This document shows, piece by piece, positions 3,694-45,462 of a DNA stretch of 64,000 bases; position 1 is the stretch's first letter; each line of letters opens with the position of its first letter. The notes below the pieces were generated by a model. It was not told where the DNA came from and searched no databases. It worked only from the letters and a program-made list of their open reading frames with translations. The translations under genes were made by a program, and so were the position numbers. Source of the stretch: a virus; IMG/VR virus record IMGVR_UViG_3300032309_001546, positions 32,001-96,000 of that record, one strand, 5' to 3'.

Positions 3694-4854
3694 TTACTTT
3701 AAGTAATTTAATGTTCCGCAATACTTAACGTCAGTCTCGTTAAATAATGTATTGCCATCTTCGTCTTGGTAAATGACTGCATATCCTAATGTAACTGCTT
3801 CCTTTGTAAACTTAGCACTGCGCTGATAGTCCATCAACTTAACCAAACAACCTTGTTCCATTACAAGTTTACCCTTGTAGACAAGCTTACCTAGCTTATG
3901 TGTATGTCCCATGACAACGCAATCGTAACTATCCCATTCTAGGAAGTTTTGTAAATAATCGCAAGCTTTAACTACAGTGCCTAGAGGAGCGCTGAGATAG
4001 GTGCTTGGGTGCAAGAATACGGTTTTATTTAGTTGGAGAATCCAAGGGTTACCCTGTGGATTGTATATTACGTTTGGTAGTTCTACAGTGCCAACATGTG
4101 CACCATCTTCATCTAAGATATAACCCTTTGCTAGATAGTATAGAGTGTCTTTACATGCAAACATTTGCATGGTGGGATCAATCTTATTAGCAAAGTATTT
4201 TTCAAGTCTATGCTCGTGGTTGCCACGCACGATATAAACTTGAGGAAAGATTCCAGCAACTTTACGAACAAACTCTAAAGCCATTGTATACTCTAGATGC
4301 ATTGGAATATTCTTATCCTTGGCAAAGCTACTAGCGGCATAGCCATCGAGTAGGTCGCCATTAAGAACAAGAATGTCTGCATCCTTATGTAGCTCAATAA
4401 CTTCGTCAATTAGTTCTTGGTTTTGGAATGGAAAATGAATATCACTTAAACTAAGAATCTTAATTGCTGCTTCTGCAGTGCTAGCCTTCTTAGTCAGATA
4501 AACCTTATCCTTGGCGTCTTTAACAGCTTCAAGATAGGCTTGTATACTACCTGCCTTCTCAACATCCTTAGTAACGTCCTTGGGGTCTTCTGCGCTTGCT
4601 AAAGCCTGGATAACAGTTGGCTTAGTCGGGCCAATCTTCTTAGTCTTGATATTCTTACTACTAGGAATCTTATAGTAATTAATAATCTTATTCAGGGTAG
4701 AAGTGGCTTTAGGATTCTCACCCTTCTGTACTTCTATTGCGCCTCTCTTGGCAAGGCGCTCTAGCGTGTGTCTAGATATATTGTACTTAATACATAGTAA
4801 AGTACCAGGAATCCAAGTATCAAGATCTTCTTTCTGCCAAATAACTGTATTCAT
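3694..4854 (-). CDS. metallophosphoesterase with N-terminal HTH-like region
   Basis: SDIH, NGDLLD, GNHE, GHTH motifs. Confidence 0.85.
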   Translation of the reverse strand: MNTVIWQKEDLDTWIPGTLLCIKYNISRHTLERLAKRGAIEVQKGENPKATSTLNKIINYYKIPSSKNIKTKKIGPTKPTVIQALASAEDPKDVTKDVEKAGSIQAYLEAVKDAKDKVYLTKKASTAEAAIKILSLSDIHFPFQNQELIDEVIELHKDADILVLNGDLLDGYAASSFAKDKNIPMHLEYTMALEFVRKVAGIFPQVYIVRGNHEHRLEKYFANKIDPTMQMFACKDTLYYLAKGYILDEDGAHVGTVELPNVIYNPQGNPWILQLNKTVFLHPSTYLSAPLGTVVKACDYLQNFLEWDSYDCVVMGHTHKLGKLVYKGKLVMEQGCLVKLMDYQRSAKFTKEAVTLGYAVIYQDEDGNTLFNETDVKYCGTLNYLK

Positions 4855-4863
4855 ATATGGACC

Positions 4864-7278
4864 TTACTTTATTAAGGTAATTTTTCCGACTGGGCGAATC
4901 CTTAAGAAATCATCTTTCTTAGTTGCTTTGTAGGAGAAAAATAATAGGGAACAATAGTCAAGCTTTTCTTTCAGTTCTTCGTATTGATCTGAGAACAGCG
5001 TGACTTCTGATATAGAAGATAAATCTTCGATTGTCAATGTTGCCATTAATTTTCCTTTTGATTTACCGCTTTTGATTTGCTGTTCTTTAATATGAGATAC
5101 CGCGACGAGCAGATTGCCTTCGTTGCTATTTGTCTCATCAATATCTTCTATCTGATTAATTAAGATTCCGGGTGGAGTCTTAGTAATATAAGATAGTGGA
5201 TGGCGACTAATAAAGAACTTACAATACTCTGATTCCCACTTAACAATTTGCAGTGGGACTTTATAGTCAGACGTTTTCTTGATAGATTCTAGGTCAGGGA
5301 AAGTAGGCTGATCAGGAACTTTAAGAACTAATGGCTTCTTAGGTCTTGGTTCTGAATACACTTTCTTACCATCTGAGTCTATACTTAAACTAATTACGCC
5401 TGCCTTTAATCTTGCAGACCAATCGTCGAGCAAGGCGGGATAAGCATCTACTTCCTTGTTACGCTCAAAGGCTTGAACTATTCTTGTTTGATAGTTTTCA
5501 ACCTTTGTATAGTAATCAAAGATATCAGAAAGCTTATCTACAAGCTTGACTCTGTCGTAGCCAAAGCTATCGAATGCGCCGACCTTTGCAAGTATACTAA
5601 CAACACCAGAATTAATCTTTGTGCGATTGATTCTAGTAAAGAAGTCAGCCATGCTTGTAAAAGACTTGCGACCGCGTGCCTTAAGTATAAGGTCACTAGC
5701 TTTGTTACCGATGCCATTGATCATGCCAAGGCCAAACAAGATAGTATTGTCATCCAACTTAGTAAAACCAATATCACTATTGTTAATACTAGGTGGAAGA
5801 ATGTTGTAACCCATCTGGCGATACTCGTTGATATATCTGACTAGCTTCTCAGGCTTACCACTTCTGACAGTCATTAGCGTAAGCATAAAGTCTGTAGGAT
5901 AGTAAGTCTTAAGATAAGCATTGAAGTAAGTAATGAAGGCATAAGCAAGAGCATGACTCTTATTAAAACCATACTCAGCAAATGCTGCAATGACATTCCA
6001 AATACGAGTTGCCTCTCCCATATCAATCTTATGAAGACGAGCACAGCCATCTACAAAAAGTGTGCGATATTCTGCCATCAATGTAGCATCTTTCTTGCCC
6101 ATTGCTTTTCTAATCTTATCAGCCTCTTGGAGTGTTACTCCTGCAAGTATCTGACAAGCGGCCATAATCTGTTCCTGATAAATAAGAACACCGCCGGTCT
6201 CAGCAAGTACATCATCAAGTAATGGATGTAACTTATTCTGAGTCTGACGAGTCTTCTTATAGTCAATGTAGTCCTGAAGCAGACCTGAGTCACGAGGACC
6301 AGGACGATTAAGAGCTGAGAAAACTGCAAGATCCTGGACACTCTGTGGCTTGAGATCGGCTACAAGTTTTAGTAGATAAGTCTCTTCCATCTGGAATAAG
6401 CCAGCTGTGAATCCTTTATTGATTAATTCAAACACATTGGGATCATCAGTAGGAACTTCTTCCTCTAGCCACTTGAGTGACTTACCAATACGCTTACAAG
6501 TAAGATCGTTAATTGTAAGGCAATCGATTCTAAGAATGTCGAACTTAATAAAGTTCATTTTCTCTAGAGTTGGACCTTCCCATTGGGTAAGATTGAACCA
6601 GTCTGCGCCTTCAGTCTTGCTCTTCCGGATTGGAATCATCTGATCTACTGGACTTGTGCCAATAAGAACTGCACTAGCATGAACGCTAACTTCCTTTGCT
6701 TGTCCATCTACTGGTCCGCAAAGGCTAAAGATATCTTGATTAGCTTCTACAATCTTTTTGATGTGTTCGCTATTGTCTTCGATTAGTTCTTTATAAGTTA
6801 CATACTTGCCACGGTGACTTTCAGGCAAGCTGTCAGCTAACCGTTCCGCATCGGCAATAGTTCTATATGTGCCATCTGCATGCTTAAGTAACTTAGTGAA
6901 AGCTTTAACGCTTGTCTTAAGAGACCAAGGCTTATAGGTAGATACACGAAGAACACGATCATGACCATACTTAGTTTGCAGTGCCTTGATTAGATCATCA
7001 GCACGAACATTACAAAAGTCAGTATCGATATCCGGGCCTTCGCCATCAACATGATAAGTAACACGCTCATCCGGATTATAAGTGTCAGACAAGCCAAGCG
7101 CATATAGTAATGCAGAGTTACTTTTATTAGCAAGTTTTGCTTTAGACTCAAAGGCCTTGTTGATAAAAGCTAGAGTTTCATCGGTAAGATACCTGACCTC
7201 AAAGTCCAAGTAGTCTTTGCTTATTACATTTAATCTATCATCTGAATAGAATTTATTAAGGTTTTTCTTGTTGATCAT
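4864..7278 (-). CDS. dnaE: DNA polymerase III alpha, C-terminal part (palm Asp, fingers, HhH, OB)
   Basis: PDIDTDF, SVHASAV, KFDIL, GLFQME, ALNRPGP, YQEQIM, YGFNKSHA, C-terminal OB fold. Confidence 0.93.
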   Translation of the reverse strand: MINKKNLNKFYSDDRLNVISKDYLDFEVRYLTDETLAFINKAFESKAKLANKSNSALLYALGLSDTYNPDERVTYHVDGEGPDIDTDFCNVRADDLIKALQTKYGHDRVLRVSTYKPWSLKTSVKAFTKLLKHADGTYRTIADAERLADSLPESHRGKYVTYKELIEDNSEHIKKIVEANQDIFSLCGPVDGQAKEVSVHASAVLIGTSPVDQMIPIRKSKTEGADWFNLTQWEGPTLEKMNFIKFDILRIDCLTINDLTCKRIGKSLKWLEEEVPTDDPNVFELINKGFTAGLFQMEETYLLKLVADLKPQSVQDLAVFSALNRPGPRDSGLLQDYIDYKKTRQTQNKLHPLLDDVLAETGGVLIYQEQIMAACQILAGVTLQEADKIRKAMGKKDATLMAEYRTLFVDGCARLHKIDMGEATRIWNVIAAFAEYGFNKSHALAYAFITYFNAYLKTYYPTDFMLTLMTVRSGKPEKLVRYINEYRQMGYNILPPSINNSDIGFTKLDDNTILFGLGMINGIGNKASDLILKARGRKSFTSMADFFTRINRTKINSGVVSILAKVGAFDSFGYDRVKLVDKLSDIFDYYTKVENYQTRIVQAFERNKEVDAYPALLDDWSARLKAGVISLSIDSDGKKVYSEPRPKKPLVLKVPDQPTFPDLESIKKTSDYKVPLQIVKWESEYCKFFISRHPLSYITKTPPGILINQIEDIDETNSNEGNLLVAVSHIKEQQIKSGKSKGKLMATLTIEDLSSISEVTLFSDQYEELKEKLDYCSLLFFSYKATKKDDFLRIRPVGKITLIK

Positions 7279-9854: not shown

Positions 9855-11291
9855 TTACAAAAGTAGTTTGTTGTACCTCTCAAGAAACTCAGATTTAGCA
9901 AATTTTTTGTAATCACTAGGCAGTATTAGATAGAAGTTTTCAGGAATAAGTTCTTTTTGTATTTCAGGAATTATGCCGTCCGTAAAGCAAAGCACTGCAT
10001 CATATTTATATCTTCCGTTGTATTGGCCAATTATTTTTAACGCCGGATTCAAATCTGTGCAGCCACCGCCTTTCCATTCAATCGTCTCTGCAAAGTTCTT
10101 ATTTCTTGCCTTCTCTATGTCTCCTCTCACCTCGCTATCATTCATAACATAATGAACACTAGCATAACTTGCTAGCTTCCTTAAATAAGATACAAACTTT
10201 TCAGCAAGCTGAGTATCAATACTTCCAGAAGTGTCGAAAATACAAGCAATTAGAGGCTTGTCTGATTTCTTAGGACCAGGTAGGATTCCAGGCAAAACTA
10301 CGTTATAGCTTGCCCATGAGACACCTGTCTTGTATCTTTTGCCAGGTCGGTTTAGAGTCTTTAGAAAAAGAACAGCATCTCCTTCGTAAGGTTTTACCTC
10401 AATATTTTTACTGTCAAATTTATCTAATTTCTCGAATGAAAGAAACGGAGTAGTATTAATTTCAACAATTTTTGCAATTTGTTTTTCAATTGAACTAATT
10501 CTTTCATTTTGTTCTTCCTCGGAGATATCACTATCATCAAGGACCATGTCCATACTTAACTGATTTATTTCTTTTTGTTCTTGCTTTTCTATAAAGTCTT
10601 GATAATCGGGACTATTTTTTAGCCAGTTAAAGATTTCTTTAGCTGTAACATTATAGATTCCTTTTCTTAATCCATATTCTGCATGGAACAACTTACTGTT
10701 AGGATGTAAATAGTAAGCAGATAAATCAGGATGAGCAAAAGCAGCTTGCTCATCAATGCGGAAAGCATTGAAGAAAAACTTACCTTGTGCATTCTGCAAA
10801 GGATAATTTACAAAATCACTTGGATCATCTAGTTGAGTAAAAGATTCTACATATTCATAAAGTAACTCAGTATTAATTTTCATGTCCTGAGCAACATTCA
10901 TAAGATAGCGATCTTCAGCTGGGACCTTAAACATAGAAACAGGATGAGCATAAACAAAATGCTTTAGCTCATGTAGCAAGATAAAATAGAAAGTCTTATC
11001 ACTTAATCTGCTAATGTTATCTATGTTAAAGTATAAAGCATATTCTTTAGTACTAGGAGTCCAGGCGATACAAGCTATAAACTCAGGATTAAAACCTTGA
11101 CCTGTAGCTTCTTCTTTGGTTAAGAAGTATCTGTCTAGACAAATCAAGTACTCAGATAGATTAATAAATGTATAAGCAATTGCATATGGGATGTAATCAG
11201 TAATAGGACTGTCTTTGCCCTCCTTGATAGCAATCAAAGAGCGACAAAGATCAGTAATCTTATTAGCGTAAATCTTTTTTAAAGCATCCAT
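9855..11291 (-). CDS. HExxH metallopeptidase-like + VWA protein (DUF2201-like), copy 1
   Basis: LLHELKH, NVAQD..IN, DTSGS MIDAS, GGGCTD, FTDG. Confidence 0.8.
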   Translation of the reverse strand: MDALKKIYANKITDLCRSLIAIKEGKDSPITDYIPYAIAYTFINLSEYLICLDRYFLTKEEATGQGFNPEFIACIAWTPSTKEYALYFNIDNISRLSDKTFYFILLHELKHFVYAHPVSMFKVPAEDRYLMNVAQDMKINTELLYEYVESFTQLDDPSDFVNYPLQNAQGKFFFNAFRIDEQAAFAHPDLSAYYLHPNSKLFHAEYGLRKGIYNVTAKEIFNWLKNSPDYQDFIEKQEQKEINQLSMDMVLDDSDISEEEQNERISSIEKQIAKIVEINTTPFLSFEKLDKFDSKNIEVKPYEGDAVLFLKTLNRPGKRYKTGVSWASYNVVLPGILPGPKKSDKPLIACIFDTSGSIDTQLAEKFVSYLRKLASYASVHYVMNDSEVRGDIEKARNKNFAETIEWKGGGCTDLNPALKIIGQYNGRYKYDAVLCFTDGIIPEIQKELIPENFYLILPSDYKKFAKSEFLERYNKLLL

Positions 11292-31745: not shown

Positions 31746-32141
31746 TTACAATGCGCTAAACAATCCTCCTCCGTTAGAATAGATTACCTTTTTCAAAGGG
31801 TACCAGCTAATGAGCTCTTCGCAGAGCGCACAAGGCTTACTATTCTTAAGTTCAAGAGTGTTAGGTTGAACCCTAACTACATACAGGCTAGCGCCACTAA
31901 GGTCGCTAGTAGGGAATCCATGTAAACATGTCATCTCAGCGTGCATTGTATCTCTTAAACTATTCGGGAAGTTATGCTTTAGGAAGGGTGAACCTTTGAC
32001 CGTGTTAAAACCGGTACTAATGATTGTACCACCCTTAATTAGAACTGCGCCATGGCAGAACCTCTCATAACTGGATCGTCTAGCTTGTTTAATAGCAACT
32101 CGAATATATCCTAGTTCTTTCTTACTCAGGTTATACTCCAT
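31746..32141 (-). CDS. zinc-dependent CMP/dCMP-type deaminase
   Basis: HGAVL, HAE, KPCALC. Confidence 0.85.
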   Translation of the reverse strand: MEYNLSKKELGYIRVAIKQARRSSYERFCHGAVLIKGGTIISTGFNTVKGSPFLKHNFPNSLRDTMHAEMTCLHGFPTSDLSGASLYVVRVQPNTLELKNSKPCALCEELISWYPLKKVIYSNGGGLFSAL

Positions 32142-36597: not shown

Positions 36598-36993
36598 TTA
36601 TGGCGCGACCTCTAGTGCGGCAACAAGAGCTTCTGCTTCGCTGGGGCCAACCCATTCACTAGAAAACGAGACGCCCATGCAACGCCACTTGTCACGAAAA
36701 GGCGAGTAAGCCTCAACAAATATCCTAGGGTCACGATGCGCATCTCGCACGAGAGCTAGTAAGCAACCAAGCGTAGCAGGATCTGAAAGATCTGGAATTG
36801 TATCTTGAGTTACCTGTGTTAGATAATTAAGGTAGCTTTGATAACCTAGAACATATCCATCAGAATCAATGCGAATAACACGTTGATTACTACTAGTAGA
36901 CATGCCAATTTTCCATTGCCAATGTTTACAAGCAATAGCCCGCTGGCCTAACTTATCAAAATAATCTAAGAGTTCATTTAGTTCATCTTTCAT
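36598..36993 (-). CDS. hypothetical protein, PDxxDPATxGCLL family
   Basis: Start MKDELN; longer track ORF runs into tRNA-Tyr. Confidence 0.75.
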   Translation of the reverse strand: MKDELNELLDYFDKLGQRAIACKHWQWKIGMSTSSNQRVIRIDSDGYVLGYQSYLNYLTQVTQDTIPDLSDPATLGCLLALVRDAHRDPRIFVEAYSPFRDKWRCMGVSFSSEWVGPSEAEALVAALEVAP

Positions 36994-37030
36994 TCTAGTA
37001 GAATCTCCAGTGATAAAGTAAATAAATAAG

Positions 37031-37112
37031 TGGGAGTAGATGGACTCGAACCAACGTAGACCGAAGTCGGGGGATTTACAGTCCCCTGCAATTGCCACTA
37101 TGCGATACTCCC
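37031..37112 (-). tRNA. tRNA-Tyr(GTA)
   Basis: GGGAGTA/TACTCCC acceptor, GGGGA-CTGTAAA-TCCCC, long variable arm. Confidence 0.92.
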
Positions 37113-37264
37113 AATATAAGTGCTCAGGACGGGACTTGAACCCGTAATTCCAAGGAAGGCAGATTTTCTTACCACTATAGTTTTCACTACCAGCATATGC
37201 CGTTTGTGGTCTGGACTATACCTTTACCATAGTATTTCTACATTAGGTAACAACCGTCTAGTCT

Positions 37265-37702
37265 CTACACTTTCCTTAAATGGTTTGCTTTTCTCCAAGA
37301 GTCTGTCATAGAATGACAGTTTGGACAAAGCAACTGCAAGTTTTCTTCTACATTATTTGTCCTATCTCCATCAATGTGATGTATTTCCAATTTTATCTGT
37401 TCAGAAAGCCATTCTGAAAGATTACATTGTTCGCATTGATGAGTACGCTTTTTTATTAAATGAGGTTTTAGATTAGCAGCTTTAGAATAAGAACTCCAGT
37501 CTTTCAACTGTTGATCTTTATTCCAACCCTTGCCAGTAAAGTGAGAGGTGTCACACAATAGTCTTTGGATGTTCCGTTGGACATTTGCGTAATTACCTCC
37601 AGCTTGCTTTAGCCCAAGAACTTTAAGTACTTGGGAAATGCTTTTACTAGCCTTAACAGCATCTATTATTTGCTGATCTGTATAATCTTTATATTTTCTC
37701 AT
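37265..37702 (-). CDS. HNH homing endonuclease (intron-encoded)
   Basis: CEQC...LEIHHIDGDRTNN..NLQLLCPNCH. Confidence 0.9.
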   Translation of the reverse strand: MRKYKDYTDQQIIDAVKASKSISQVLKVLGLKQAGGNYANVQRNIQRLLCDTSHFTGKGWNKDQQLKDWSSYSKAANLKPHLIKKRTHQCEQCNLSEWLSEQIKLEIHHIDGDRTNNVEENLQLLCPNCHSMTDSWRKANHLRKV

Positions 37703-37708
37703 AGTAAT

Positions 37709-37717
37709 ATTATAGCA
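37709..37717 (-). promoter_or_regulatory. extended -10 promoter inside intron
   Basis: TGCTATAAT 6 nt upstream of HNH ATG, no RBS. Confidence 0.6.
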
Positions 37718-37897
37718 TAGGTAATGGAGAATAAACTGTGCGTTTGCCATTTAAGGCTTAGCTCGGTATTAGCATGCTAGTAAACTAGTTTAGCCTTCAC
37801 CGAATTTGATTGTGTTCACCTATAAGGTTTCCCCTATAGGGCTCAAATTTTCTATAAGTCTGCTGCGTATGCCGATTTCGCCACCTGAGCAAAGGCA

Positions 37898-44082: not shown

Positions 44083-45462
44083 CTATAGAACTTCTTTCAT
44101 AATAACAACATCGCCAGGAAACTTTTGGTCTTTGTATTGCTCGCGCTCACCGCGAGTCATAACCCAAAGAATTGGCTTAGTTGTCTTAATAGACGGAGGA
44201 CTACATGCTCCGTCGCTGAAATAAACAAGACAAGTATACTTGCTCTTATTCCTATTCATATACTGAACAGGAGGATCAAAATCAGTACCACCACGGCCAT
44301 AGATTTTAACAGTACTCTTCTTAGAGTATTCTTCAACCTTAGCAATTGCAGCATCGCAATGAAGAAGCGTCATCTTTGCGCCAGTCTTAGAGATAAACTC
44401 TAGTTCTGCCATAAAGTTTGCCAACTCTTGATCGCTAACGCTCCCGCTAGTGTCAATTGCAATAAGCAACTTATGCTTAGGATTGAACTTGAGACCAGGC
44501 TGGCCAAGGAAACGAATAGATTCCTTACGCTTAGTCTTCTTTACAACTACACTAGTACTTGCAGCAATGAATCTCCTGAAGTAAGCTTTCCAGTTAGTAA
44601 CTGGATCCTTCTTTTCAAGAAGACGATCAATCTCTGAAAGTAGGTTACCAGGGATATAGCCGCGAGCAGTAGAACCAGACTGACGAATAGTCTCATGGTA
44701 AGCTCTACGGACCTGCTGACGACGAATCTCGTCTACAGCTTCCCAGTATCCAGTAGAATCTTCACCAGGCTCAAGGTCTGGCTTGTCCCACTGGCTATGG
44801 CTAGGATCGCCCTGGCCATACATATCCATTAGATTCTGATCTGCCTTGGATGGACCTTTGCCAGACTGACTCTCAGAGTCACCATCTTTATCTCCTGATG
44901 GACCAGGAGAAGATCCTTCTTGCCCATCCTGACCGCCATCAGGACTATCACCAGGATTCTTAGGGCCCTGATCTGGTCCATCACCAGGACAGGGATCTCC
45001 ATAGAATTCCTCAGGATACTCTCCCTTTAGATCTTCAATCTTCTGCTTTAGAAAATCATAGTAGAAGACAGTACCTGCCTTTTCAGGCAAGTTGTAATCT
45101 GGGAAGGTATCCATCTGGATACAACCTTCAGGAAGTTCTGATCTATCAATATACTGATTGATCTCAAGATCAGCAGCAATATTAAAGATCTTATGATCTG
45201 GGCAACGGTTACGATAGTAAGGACTCAAGTGGCCAAGTGAGATATGAAGAATCTCATGCTTTAGTACACCAACCTGATGCTCAGGGGGCATATCAAGATA
45301 CGCACCTTTTCTAAGCAACAACTTAAAGTTGTATCCTTCCATCGCAACTGCTGCAATAGGAATCGAATGATCGATCTCATACTTATTGACACCCAATAGA
45401 TACAATCCGAAGAAAGGATTGTCGTTCATCAATAGCCGAAACGGCTTAGTATATTGTTGCAT
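44083..45462 (-). CDS. HExxH metallopeptidase-like + VWA protein (DUF2201-like), copy 2
   Basis: LKHEILH, NIAADLEIN, G/D/P-rich linker, IDTSGS, GRGGTDF, FSDG. Confidence 0.87.
   Translation of the reverse strand: MQQYTKPFRLLMNDNPFFGLYLLGVNKYEIDHSIPIAAVAMEGYNFKLLLRKGAYLDMPPEHQVGVLKHEILHISLGHLSPYYRNRCPDHKIFNIAADLEINQYIDRSELPEGCIQMDTFPDYNLPEKAGTVFYYDFLKQKIEDLKGEYPEEFYGDPCPGDGPDQGPKNPGDSPDGGQDGQEGSSPGPSGDKDGDSESQSGKGPSKADQNLMDMYGQGDPSHSQWDKPDLEPGEDSTGYWEAVDEIRRQQVRRAYHETIRQSGSTARGYIPGNLLSEIDRLLEKKDPVTNWKAYFRRFIAASTSVVVKKTKRKESIRFLGQPGLKFNPKHKLLIAIDTSGSVSDQELANFMAELEFISKTGAKMTLLHCDAAIAKVEEYSKKSTVKIYGRGGTDFDPPVQYMNRNKSKYTCLVYFSDGACSPPSIKTTKPILWVMTRGEREQYKDQKFPGDVVIMKEVL

Follow-up and report, generated by a model that had tools for sequence, protein, structure and literature searches.

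The 64,000-nt stretch analysed here (the window) spans positions 32,001 to 96,000 of the IMG/VR virus record IMGVR_UViG_3300032309_001546 and carries, on its minus strand, a transfer RNA (tRNA) gene, tRNA-Leu(UAA), which is interrupted in its anticodon by a group I intron, and a loop of this intron holds a complete gene for an HNH endonuclease. With introns allowed, ARAGORN returned a single call for this gene, a tRNA-Leu(taa) of 83 nt running from 37890 to 37120 and split by a 688-nt intron that separates the first two anticodon bases, U34 and A35 (gacTT^AAaat). Both exons were also compared with the tRNA-Leu gene of a sister viral contig, L171, and the parts of the split gene are as follows.

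37121-37890, minus strand: whole split tRNA-Leu(UAA) gene (ARAGORN, introns allowed)
37856-37890, minus strand: 5' exon, from the acceptor stem to U34, last letters ...GCAGACUU (ARAGORN; 100% identity to L171:4178-4212)
37168-37855, minus strand: group I intron, 688 nt, first base A, terminal G (omega-G) at 37168
37121-37167, minus strand: 3' exon, AAAAUCUGC... to the discriminator A (ARAGORN; 100% identity to L171:4213-4259)

The exons fold as a normal tRNA-Leu with a long variable arm, the spliced product measuring 82-83 nt, and CCA is not encoded. The 3' end of the intron reads ...GGUAAG at 37168 and is followed directly by the exon, which gives it the terminal guanosine of a group I intron, and the insertion setting, CUU/a...g/AAAA, is the one defined as 'Leu.3Ug' (Williams 2020). 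An earlier note on this DNA had placed a phage-borne intron at the classical trnL site, U^AA, of this gene, in agreement with the ARAGORN call; the motifs that it quoted all lie on the minus strand (AAAATTTGAGCC at 37851-37840, GTAGAGACTAGACGG at 37268-37254 and ATAGTCC at 37219-37213), and its remark that standard tRNA callers may overlook the gene was borne out, as neither default ARAGORN nor the Rfam tRNA model reports it, though both list the neighbouring tRNAs. The split gene is the sole tRNA-Leu of the 145,919-bp record, whose eight tRNAs read A/U-ending codons and which also encodes a DNA polymerase, a ribonucleotide reductase and a UvsE-like endonuclease. Many lake-water metagenomes hold near-identical DNA.

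We assigned the paired regions P1-P9 on the window sequence and counted covariation in an alignment of 115 distinct related tRNA-Leu(UAA) introns, with the following result (ORF, open reading frame).

37842-37858, minus strand: P1, exon CUU and intron A1 pairing with UGAG (37845-37842), U34 (37856) forming a U·G pair with G 37843
37819-37840, minus strand: P2 hairpin, 9 bp, GAAA tetraloop (covariation, up to six pair types per position)
37808-37813, minus strand: P3 5' strand ACAAUC, partner 37255-37250 (six pairs canonical in 114-115 of 115 introns, compensatory changes)
37763-37803, minus strand: P4-P5-P5a domain, P4 being 37803-37798 with 37768-37763 (115-intron alignment)
37747-37756, minus strand: P6 5' strand CCUUAAAUGG, perfect reverse complement of 37283-37274 (basal P6 pairs covary)
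37274-37283, minus strand: P6 3' strand CCAUUUAAGG, overlapping the final ORF codons (pairs with 37756-37747)
37250-37263, minus strand: P7 5' strand GACUA (37263-37259) and P3 3' strand GGUUGU (37255-37250) (115-intron alignment)
37226-37248, minus strand: P8/P8a hairpin, GAAA loop (covariation)
37214-37218, minus strand: P7 3' strand UAGUC, a strand outside any search motif (pairs with GACUA in 115 of 115 introns)
37171-37210, minus strand: P9 (ACCAC/GUGGU) around the hairpins P9a and P9b (GAAA loop) (115-intron alignment)

The helices of the catalytic core (P3, P4-P6, P7-P8 and the P3/P7 pseudoknot) form in the window sequence and covary in the 115 relatives. P2, P3, P4, P6, P8, P9 and P9b are nearly always canonical across the alignment, with many compensatory exchanges; P9b, for example, is canonical in 115/115, with exchanges of UA for CG and AU for GC in both directions, and the U·G wobble at the 5' splice site is likewise present in all 115. 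The perfect 10-bp P6 stem (37756-37747 with 37283-37274) closes a loop of ~460 nt that bears the ORF. For comparison this loop was swapped for a tetraloop by script, leaving a 229-nt ribozyme that could be aligned over its full length with dozens of tRNA-Leu introns at ~75% identity (E down to 1e-37), a match that puts the split-gene observation, on sequence grounds, far beyond chance. Its closest counterparts are ORF-less tRNA-Leu(UAA) introns in viral contigs, and the six of these relatives that were scanned (~75% identity) scored 57-76 bits, all at or above the Rfam gathering score, and sit in dense phage-style tRNA arrays.

Two features were placed in the P6 loop.

37265-37702, minus strand, same strand as the intron: HNH endonuclease ORF, 145 amino acids plus stop (Pfam HNH, PHROG 10822, homologue N-termini)
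37709-37717, minus strand: extended -10-like element TGCTATAAT, 6 nt upstream of the HNH ATG (kept in 4/4 aligned intron-bearing relatives)

The longest frame, 37265-37750, encodes 161 amino acids from a first ATG inside the P6 5' strand, but we take the ATG at 37702 (MRKYKDY...) as the start because it matches the N-termini of homologues, the closest free-standing relatives beginning MRKYREY... The protein scores 24.5 bits against Pfam HNH PF01844 (cut-off 21.4) and matches PHROG 10822 (E 2e-35), so that the P6 extension does hold, looped out by the 10-bp stem, the full HNH ORF that had been proposed for it. More than 1,265 database homologues were found, most of 139-148 amino acids and with P0002 (86% identity) among the closest, and the catalytic His/Asn residues (H109, N117, N128, H130) and zinc-binding Cys residues (C90, C93, C126, C129) are invariant in 50 of them. 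In the AlphaFold model (mean predicted local distance difference test score 84) three helices make up the N-terminal domain, a C-terminal strand-strand-helix segment (E106-109, E122-125, H127-130) is consistent with an HNH fold, and a Foldseek search of the model against the PDB gave weak matches to McrA-type HNH domains only (E >= 0.03). The TAG stop (37267-37265) falls within the conserved core element GUGUAGAGACUA, and the end of the reading frame thereby runs over the P6 3' strand and J6/7. The extended -10-like element was spotted by eye and by counting: bases near TGCTATAAT vary among the four aligned intron-bearing relatives while the element itself is constant, and TGNTATAAT occurs just 3 times over both strands of the 146-kb record. 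A sigma-70 scan upstream of the HNH gene found no two-hexamer promoter, and we regard TGCTATAAT as a candidate internal promoter from which a leaderless HNH mRNA may arise.

Substitutions among relatives point to constraint on both the protein and the RNA. Compared with its most diverged relative (L126/L172), the HNH ORF shows 22 differences, 16 of them synonymous, a ratio of nonsynonymous to synonymous change (pN/pS) of ~0.09, and in three closer relatives (L122-L124) every difference is synonymous; on these counts the ORF is under purifying selection. In the L126/L172 comparison the ribozyme and exons differ at 1/286 positions, against 16/84 synonymous ORF sites (Fisher p = 2e-10), so both protein and RNA are being maintained.

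Contigs from four lake metatranscriptome runs, belonging to four studies, cover 37213-37832 at 95-100% identity and are wholly intronic. They hint only weakly at the presence of intron or HNH RNA, DNA carry-over being possible in such contigs, and their missing cover over the exons and flanking genes is not usable as evidence. One RNA contig touching both exons and another with a 'skip' were rejected and assigned to other organisms because of mismatches and foreign letters. A further lake contig (run X17, record 8; window 37162-37274) matches the conserved P7-P9 parts only, with 88 foreign letters between them, and so places a related ORF-less tRNA intron of another organism in the RNA data.

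The same 688-nt intron is present in six viral contigs, and the sister contig L171 carries at the same place an uninterrupted tRNA-Leu(taa) (L171:4178-4260) whose two halves are 100% identical to the window exons, next to a UvsE-like gene with 97.5% DNA identity to that of the window. The intron is therefore polymorphic and, as is expected of a mobile intron, has a natural intron-minus allele with matching exons; on this comparison the L171 allele is a natural empty site, and the suggestion that the element offers a route for horizontal spread becomes plausible with it. An alternative is that the element is no longer mobile and is inherited vertically, the L171 allele having arisen by precise intron loss, for instance through recombination with a reverse-transcribed or foreign spliced copy. 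The ratio of one intronless contig to six intron-bearing ones fits such a history, as does flank identity of ~98%, similar to that of the intron, which leaves no clear signature of a recent sweep; a candidate signature of this kind in L173-L175 (intron 99%, UvsE-like gene 80%) was rejected, because the other flanks are at ~98% and the gene is a mosaic patch. Purifying selection on the ORF is, however, hard to explain without ongoing nuclease function, and the repeated association of the HNH family with different tRNA introns also speaks against an immobile element, which we hold to be quite improbable.

The tRNA cluster of L171 differs from that of the window immediately downstream. In L171:4261-5012 the tRNA-Tyr, the next gene after tRNA-Leu, is reduced to a 25-nt 5' remnant (4268-4294), and after it come a free-standing HNH gene (4363-4839), another tRNA-Tyr (4846-4929) and a tRNA-Gly. 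This free-standing HNH protein belongs to the same family as the intron enzyme (36% identity, E 4e-22), and the arrangement suggests that a free-standing homing endonuclease drove the replacement of a cassette, which marks the tRNA cluster as a playground for such enzymes.

Introns that combine a tRNA gene with an HNH ORF are rarer than ORF-less ones, and several were found besides that of the window.

L061, L119 and L259: tRNA-Leu, HNH antisense to the intron, in P6
L009: tRNA-Lys, HNH antisense to the intron, in P6
L130 and L131: tRNA-Leu, HNH sense, not placed in helices
L141: tRNA-Thr, HNH sense, not placed in helices, intron by ARAGORN call alone

L141 gave no group I match at E <= 0.001. 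The GACTT^AAAATC junction is common to every HNH-bearing tRNA-Leu intron checked, namely the window's own and those of L061, L119, L259, L130 and L131. With HNH-bearing introns in other contigs and ORF-less tRNA-Leu(UAA) introns common in viral DNA, the uniqueness that the earlier note attached to this locus was overstated. The L259 intron, on a 14.9-kb scaffold of the Acidobacteriota metagenome-assembled genome BP_34, splits a tRNA-Leu(taa), is likewise 688 nt long and carries its same-family HNH in antisense; it equals the window intron in length and differs from it in sequence and orientation.

The closest free-standing relatives of the intron enzyme (L127/L128 and L129; 55-60% identity) directly adjoin intronless tRNA-Leu(UAA) genes, and in L127:2501-3014 the closest of them all (60% identity) overlaps the 5' end of an intronless tRNA-Leu(taa) by ~15 nt. 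In a tree of the family, built from a small sample and midpoint-rooted, each of three intronic groups has a separate free-standing gene as its partner (supports 0.89, 0.92 and 0.998), which suggests repeated capture by, or escape from, introns. Such habits also leave room for an enzyme that is not the homing enzyme of this insertion site: the intron would self-splice, the HNH protein would cut another sequence nearby in the tRNA cluster while its gene lodges in P6, and the intron would spread as a side effect of co-conversion ('collaborative' mobility). The nearest HNH relatives stand free beside intronless tRNA-Leu genes whose anticodon stems differ, and 8 bp downstream in L171 part of the tRNA-Tyr region has given way to a free-standing HNH gene related to that of the intron, both in keeping with this view. 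Against this, the exons of the intron-plus and intron-minus alleles are identical, as expected if the enzyme recognises a sequence across the insertion site that the intron breaks up, and all checked HNH-bearing tRNA-Leu introns share one junction, so we consider collaborative mobility unlikely.

We scanned viral contigs and bacterial genomes for the core 15-mer GTAGAGACTAGACGG and called tRNAs in the matches with ARAGORN. At least 119 viral stretches contain the 15-mer, most of them with intron-split tRNAs, and among the matches listed at least 75 are split tRNA-Leu(taa) genes, including those of relatives of the window phage and of Agrobacterium phage Atu_ph07; the further viral split tRNAs among these matches are of Met, Lys, Gln, Phe, Cys, Thr and Arg type, with one suppressor. 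Bacterial genomes with the 15-mer, again among the matches listed, belong to Proteobacteria, Acidobacteriota, Chloroflexota and others and mostly carry it in tRNA-Leu(taa), and no cyanobacterium is among the 120 bacterial loci listed for the exact 15-mer. In Atu_ph07 (L001:1495-1856; MF403008.1 ~112890-113250) the tRNA-Leu(UAA) gene contains a group I intron of 278 nt that has no ORF (Rfam 48.9 bits), and the phage record has no tRNA annotated at the split gene and a 'hypothetical protein' coding sequence overlapping its 3' end. The GenBank record of Gordonia phage Daredevil was also matched by the core, with no feature annotated there. The core element recurs in L075 (IMGVR_UViG_2974674860_000001, 90,490 bp), in a 238-nt intron that interrupts a tRNA-Lys(ttt), and L117 (IMGVR_UViG_3300010352_001405, 163 kb) has, by ARAGORN, a UAA-reading suppressor tRNA (anticodon tta) with a 180-nt intron that has the group I core motif. 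A second motif, CAGAGACTCGACGG, from the core of the Anabaena intron, had 120 matches in viral contigs; none lies within a tRNA, and the matches were therefore rejected as chance. A text search for CAGAGACTCGACGG found no paper.

A tree of tRNA-Leu introns, drawn from a short alignment of viral and bacterial sets picked by one motif and therefore indicative only, assigns the window intron to a clade (support 0.988) whose members are 52 viral sequences and 3 from bacterial assemblies; a further 59 bacterial sequences fall outside it. The three bacterial-assembly members are the Acidobacteriota contigs L209, L212 and L248, which could be prophages or mis-binned phage DNA. The earlier note's label 'cyanobacterial/plastid-type' stands for the insertion site and general type of the intron and, in this comparison with viral and non-cyanobacterial introns, finds no support as a specific affinity, the nearest ribozymes being viral and the core 15-mer being found, among the matches listed, in Proteobacteria and Acidobacteriota. 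Recent acquisition from the trnL of a cyanobacterial host, which would make the phage a cyanophage, is in our view improbable: the insertion site and intron ends are those of the classical Nostoc/Anabaena intron (Williams 2020) and the DNA comes from lake water, yet the nearest ribozymes, at ~75% identity, are viral, none of the 25 best ribozyme matches is a bacterial-genome intron (non-cyanobacterial, among the matches listed), and the 120 bacterial 15-mer loci listed include no cyanobacterium.

From the organisation of the split gene, the make-up of the ribozyme, an HNH gene that is intact and under selection, and the natural occurrence of both intron-plus and intron-minus alleles, we read the locus, with a probability of roughly 0.8, as a phage tRNA-Leu(UAA) gene that harbours a mobile group I intron of the bacterial tRNA (IC3-like) type, the same reading holding that a tRNA-type intron was probably made mobile by an HNH family which otherwise lives free among phage tRNA genes. 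In the proposed sequence of events the leftward tRNA cluster would be transcribed and the intron would fold, P1 presenting U34 in its U·G pair and P3-P9 forming the catalytic core; free guanosine would attack after U34, the terminal G (37168) would dock and the exons would be joined, after which ordinary end processing and CCA addition would yield a working tRNA-Leu(UAA). The 145-amino-acid HNH protein would be made from the P6 loop, probably from its own extended -10-like promoter and through a leaderless or short-leader mRNA. On co-infection with an intronless relative it would nick or cut the intronless tRNA-Leu gene near the anticodon, and recombinational repair would copy the intron into the cut allele (homing).

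Several points weigh against this reading. Intron loss, rather than a target never occupied, could explain the intronless L171 allele. The HNH protein has no sequence match to any solved PDB structure, and no characterised enzyme is close to it. No Shine-Dalgarno sequence is evident ahead of the HNH ATG, and the promoter reading depends on a consensus match. The exon-exon joint appears in none of the contigs from lake RNA libraries. The Rfam model Intron_gpI (RF00028), used for the covariance-model check that the earlier note proposed, matched the 5' half of the intron at 26.5 bits (E 2e-4; 23.6 bits in a whole-record scan), and the score falls short of the gathering threshold of 50 bits, with the 3' half misaligned, which we attribute to the ~460-nt P6 insertion holding the ORF. 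The low Rfam score and the unseen joint could also be taken as signs that the tRNA is dead, broken by an intron in decay and the remnant of an endonuclease. This we find scarcely credible, since nothing is missing from the core pairings, U34 keeps its U·G partner and the intron its terminal G, substitutions are far scarcer in the ribozyme and exons than at synonymous sites, and the gene is the phage's only tRNA-Leu within a tRNA set that reads A/U-ending codons.

Elsewhere in the window, a 166-amino-acid ORF (36598-37098, minus strand), listed with a GTG start, overlaps the tRNA-Tyr (37030-37112), and its real start is probably further downstream. Two large ORFs, 44083-45462 and 9855-11291 (-), of 459 and 478 amino acids, match PHROG 1314 'HNH endonuclease', so the phage has more nuclease genes beyond the tRNA region.

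The trnL(UAA) intron is the textbook 'ancient' intron, common to cyanobacteria and plastids, whose horizontal spread has long been argued, and we know of no homing enzyme for it. A tRNA intron with an enzyme exists in Synechocystis, whose I-Ssp6803I is a PD-(D/E)XK enzyme and not an HNH one. The core element GUAGAGACUAGACGG of the window intron is seen in many proteobacterial tRNA introns among the matches listed and also occurs in the tRNA-Ile(CAU) intron of Azoarcus. The IC3 introns of Azoarcus tRNA-Ile(CAU) and Agrobacterium tRNA-Arg(CCU) resemble that of the window in this element and in overall architecture, but they are cellular, lie in other tRNAs at other positions and have no ORF. With the classical trnL(UAA) intron (Kuhsel et al. 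1990, as cited in PMC3984707) the window intron shares the tRNA that it interrupts, the CUU/a...g/AAAA site, the compact P1-P9 core, the U·G pair and the terminal G, and it differs in being phage-borne, in carrying an HNH gene in P6, in its presence/absence polymorphism and in its viral nearest relatives, the cyanobacterial members being compared here by definition and not by sequence. The study that defines the classical setting states that introns longer than ~400 bp may hold genes, and phages and enzymes are outside its treatment (Williams 2020, bioRxiv 10.1101/2020.01.27.920355). I-Ssp6803I is encoded by a group I intron in the tRNA-fMet of Synechocystis PCC 6803 (Bonocora & Shub 2001, cited in PMC3984707), a cellular intron in another tRNA and at another insertion site.

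Phage group I introns with HNH nicking enzymes include those of I-HmuI (SPO1), I-BasI, I-TwoI and I-PfoP3I (PMC3428280) and I-TevIII (PMC1865063). Like the window intron they are phage group I introns with a looped-out HNH homing ORF, and they spread during co-infection, but they interrupt protein-coding genes and not a tRNA gene, and the window enzyme differs from the I-HmuI group in its predicted layout, an N-terminal three-helix domain followed by a C-terminal zinc-binding HNH domain. A 2014 review placed all phage introns then known in protein-coding genes, despite the many tRNA genes of phages (PMC3984707). In the tRNA cluster of T4 the free-standing homing endonuclease SegB drives preferential inheritance of the tRNA region (PMC2330249; PMC13096335); the free-standing relatives of the window HNH (L127, L129 and L171) share its genomic habit among tRNA genes, though SegB is a GIY-YIG enzyme outside any intron and the window enzyme is an intronic HNH. 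Devoto et al. 2019 (PMC6784885) described 'enigmatic' introns of no assigned class in tRNA genes of Lak megaphages, by their account the first for phage tRNAs. These too lie in phage tRNA genes and have intron-plus and intron-minus variants, but they were not classified as group I, whereas the window intron has, judged by its helices, the make-up of a canonical group I ribozyme. Our literature search, with subscription journals outside its coverage, returned no paper on group I introns in phage tRNA genes and none on an endonuclease-bearing trnL(UAA) intron.

Default annotation misses intron-split tRNAs, including those of the cultured phages Atu_ph07 and Gordonia phage Daredevil, and phage tRNA inventories are thus undercounted. 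Here the trnL site of a phage is occupied by an intron whose endonuclease gene is intact and under selection, and a natural empty allele is at hand; this allele and the free-standing relatives beside intronless tRNA-Leu genes make the assembly of mobile introns, and the movement of tRNA introns between genomes, testable. More tentatively, and with more doubt than confidence, tRNA-type (IC3) introns may be kept and carried chiefly by phage tRNA arrays, with one tRNA-associated HNH family captured several times, in sense here, in antisense elsewhere and free-standing beside intronless tRNA-Leu in between. If so, these loci would form a natural series for the assembly of mobile introns, and in phages the 'ancient' trnL(UAA) intron would have a specific means of passing between bacterial phyla, cyanobacteria included.

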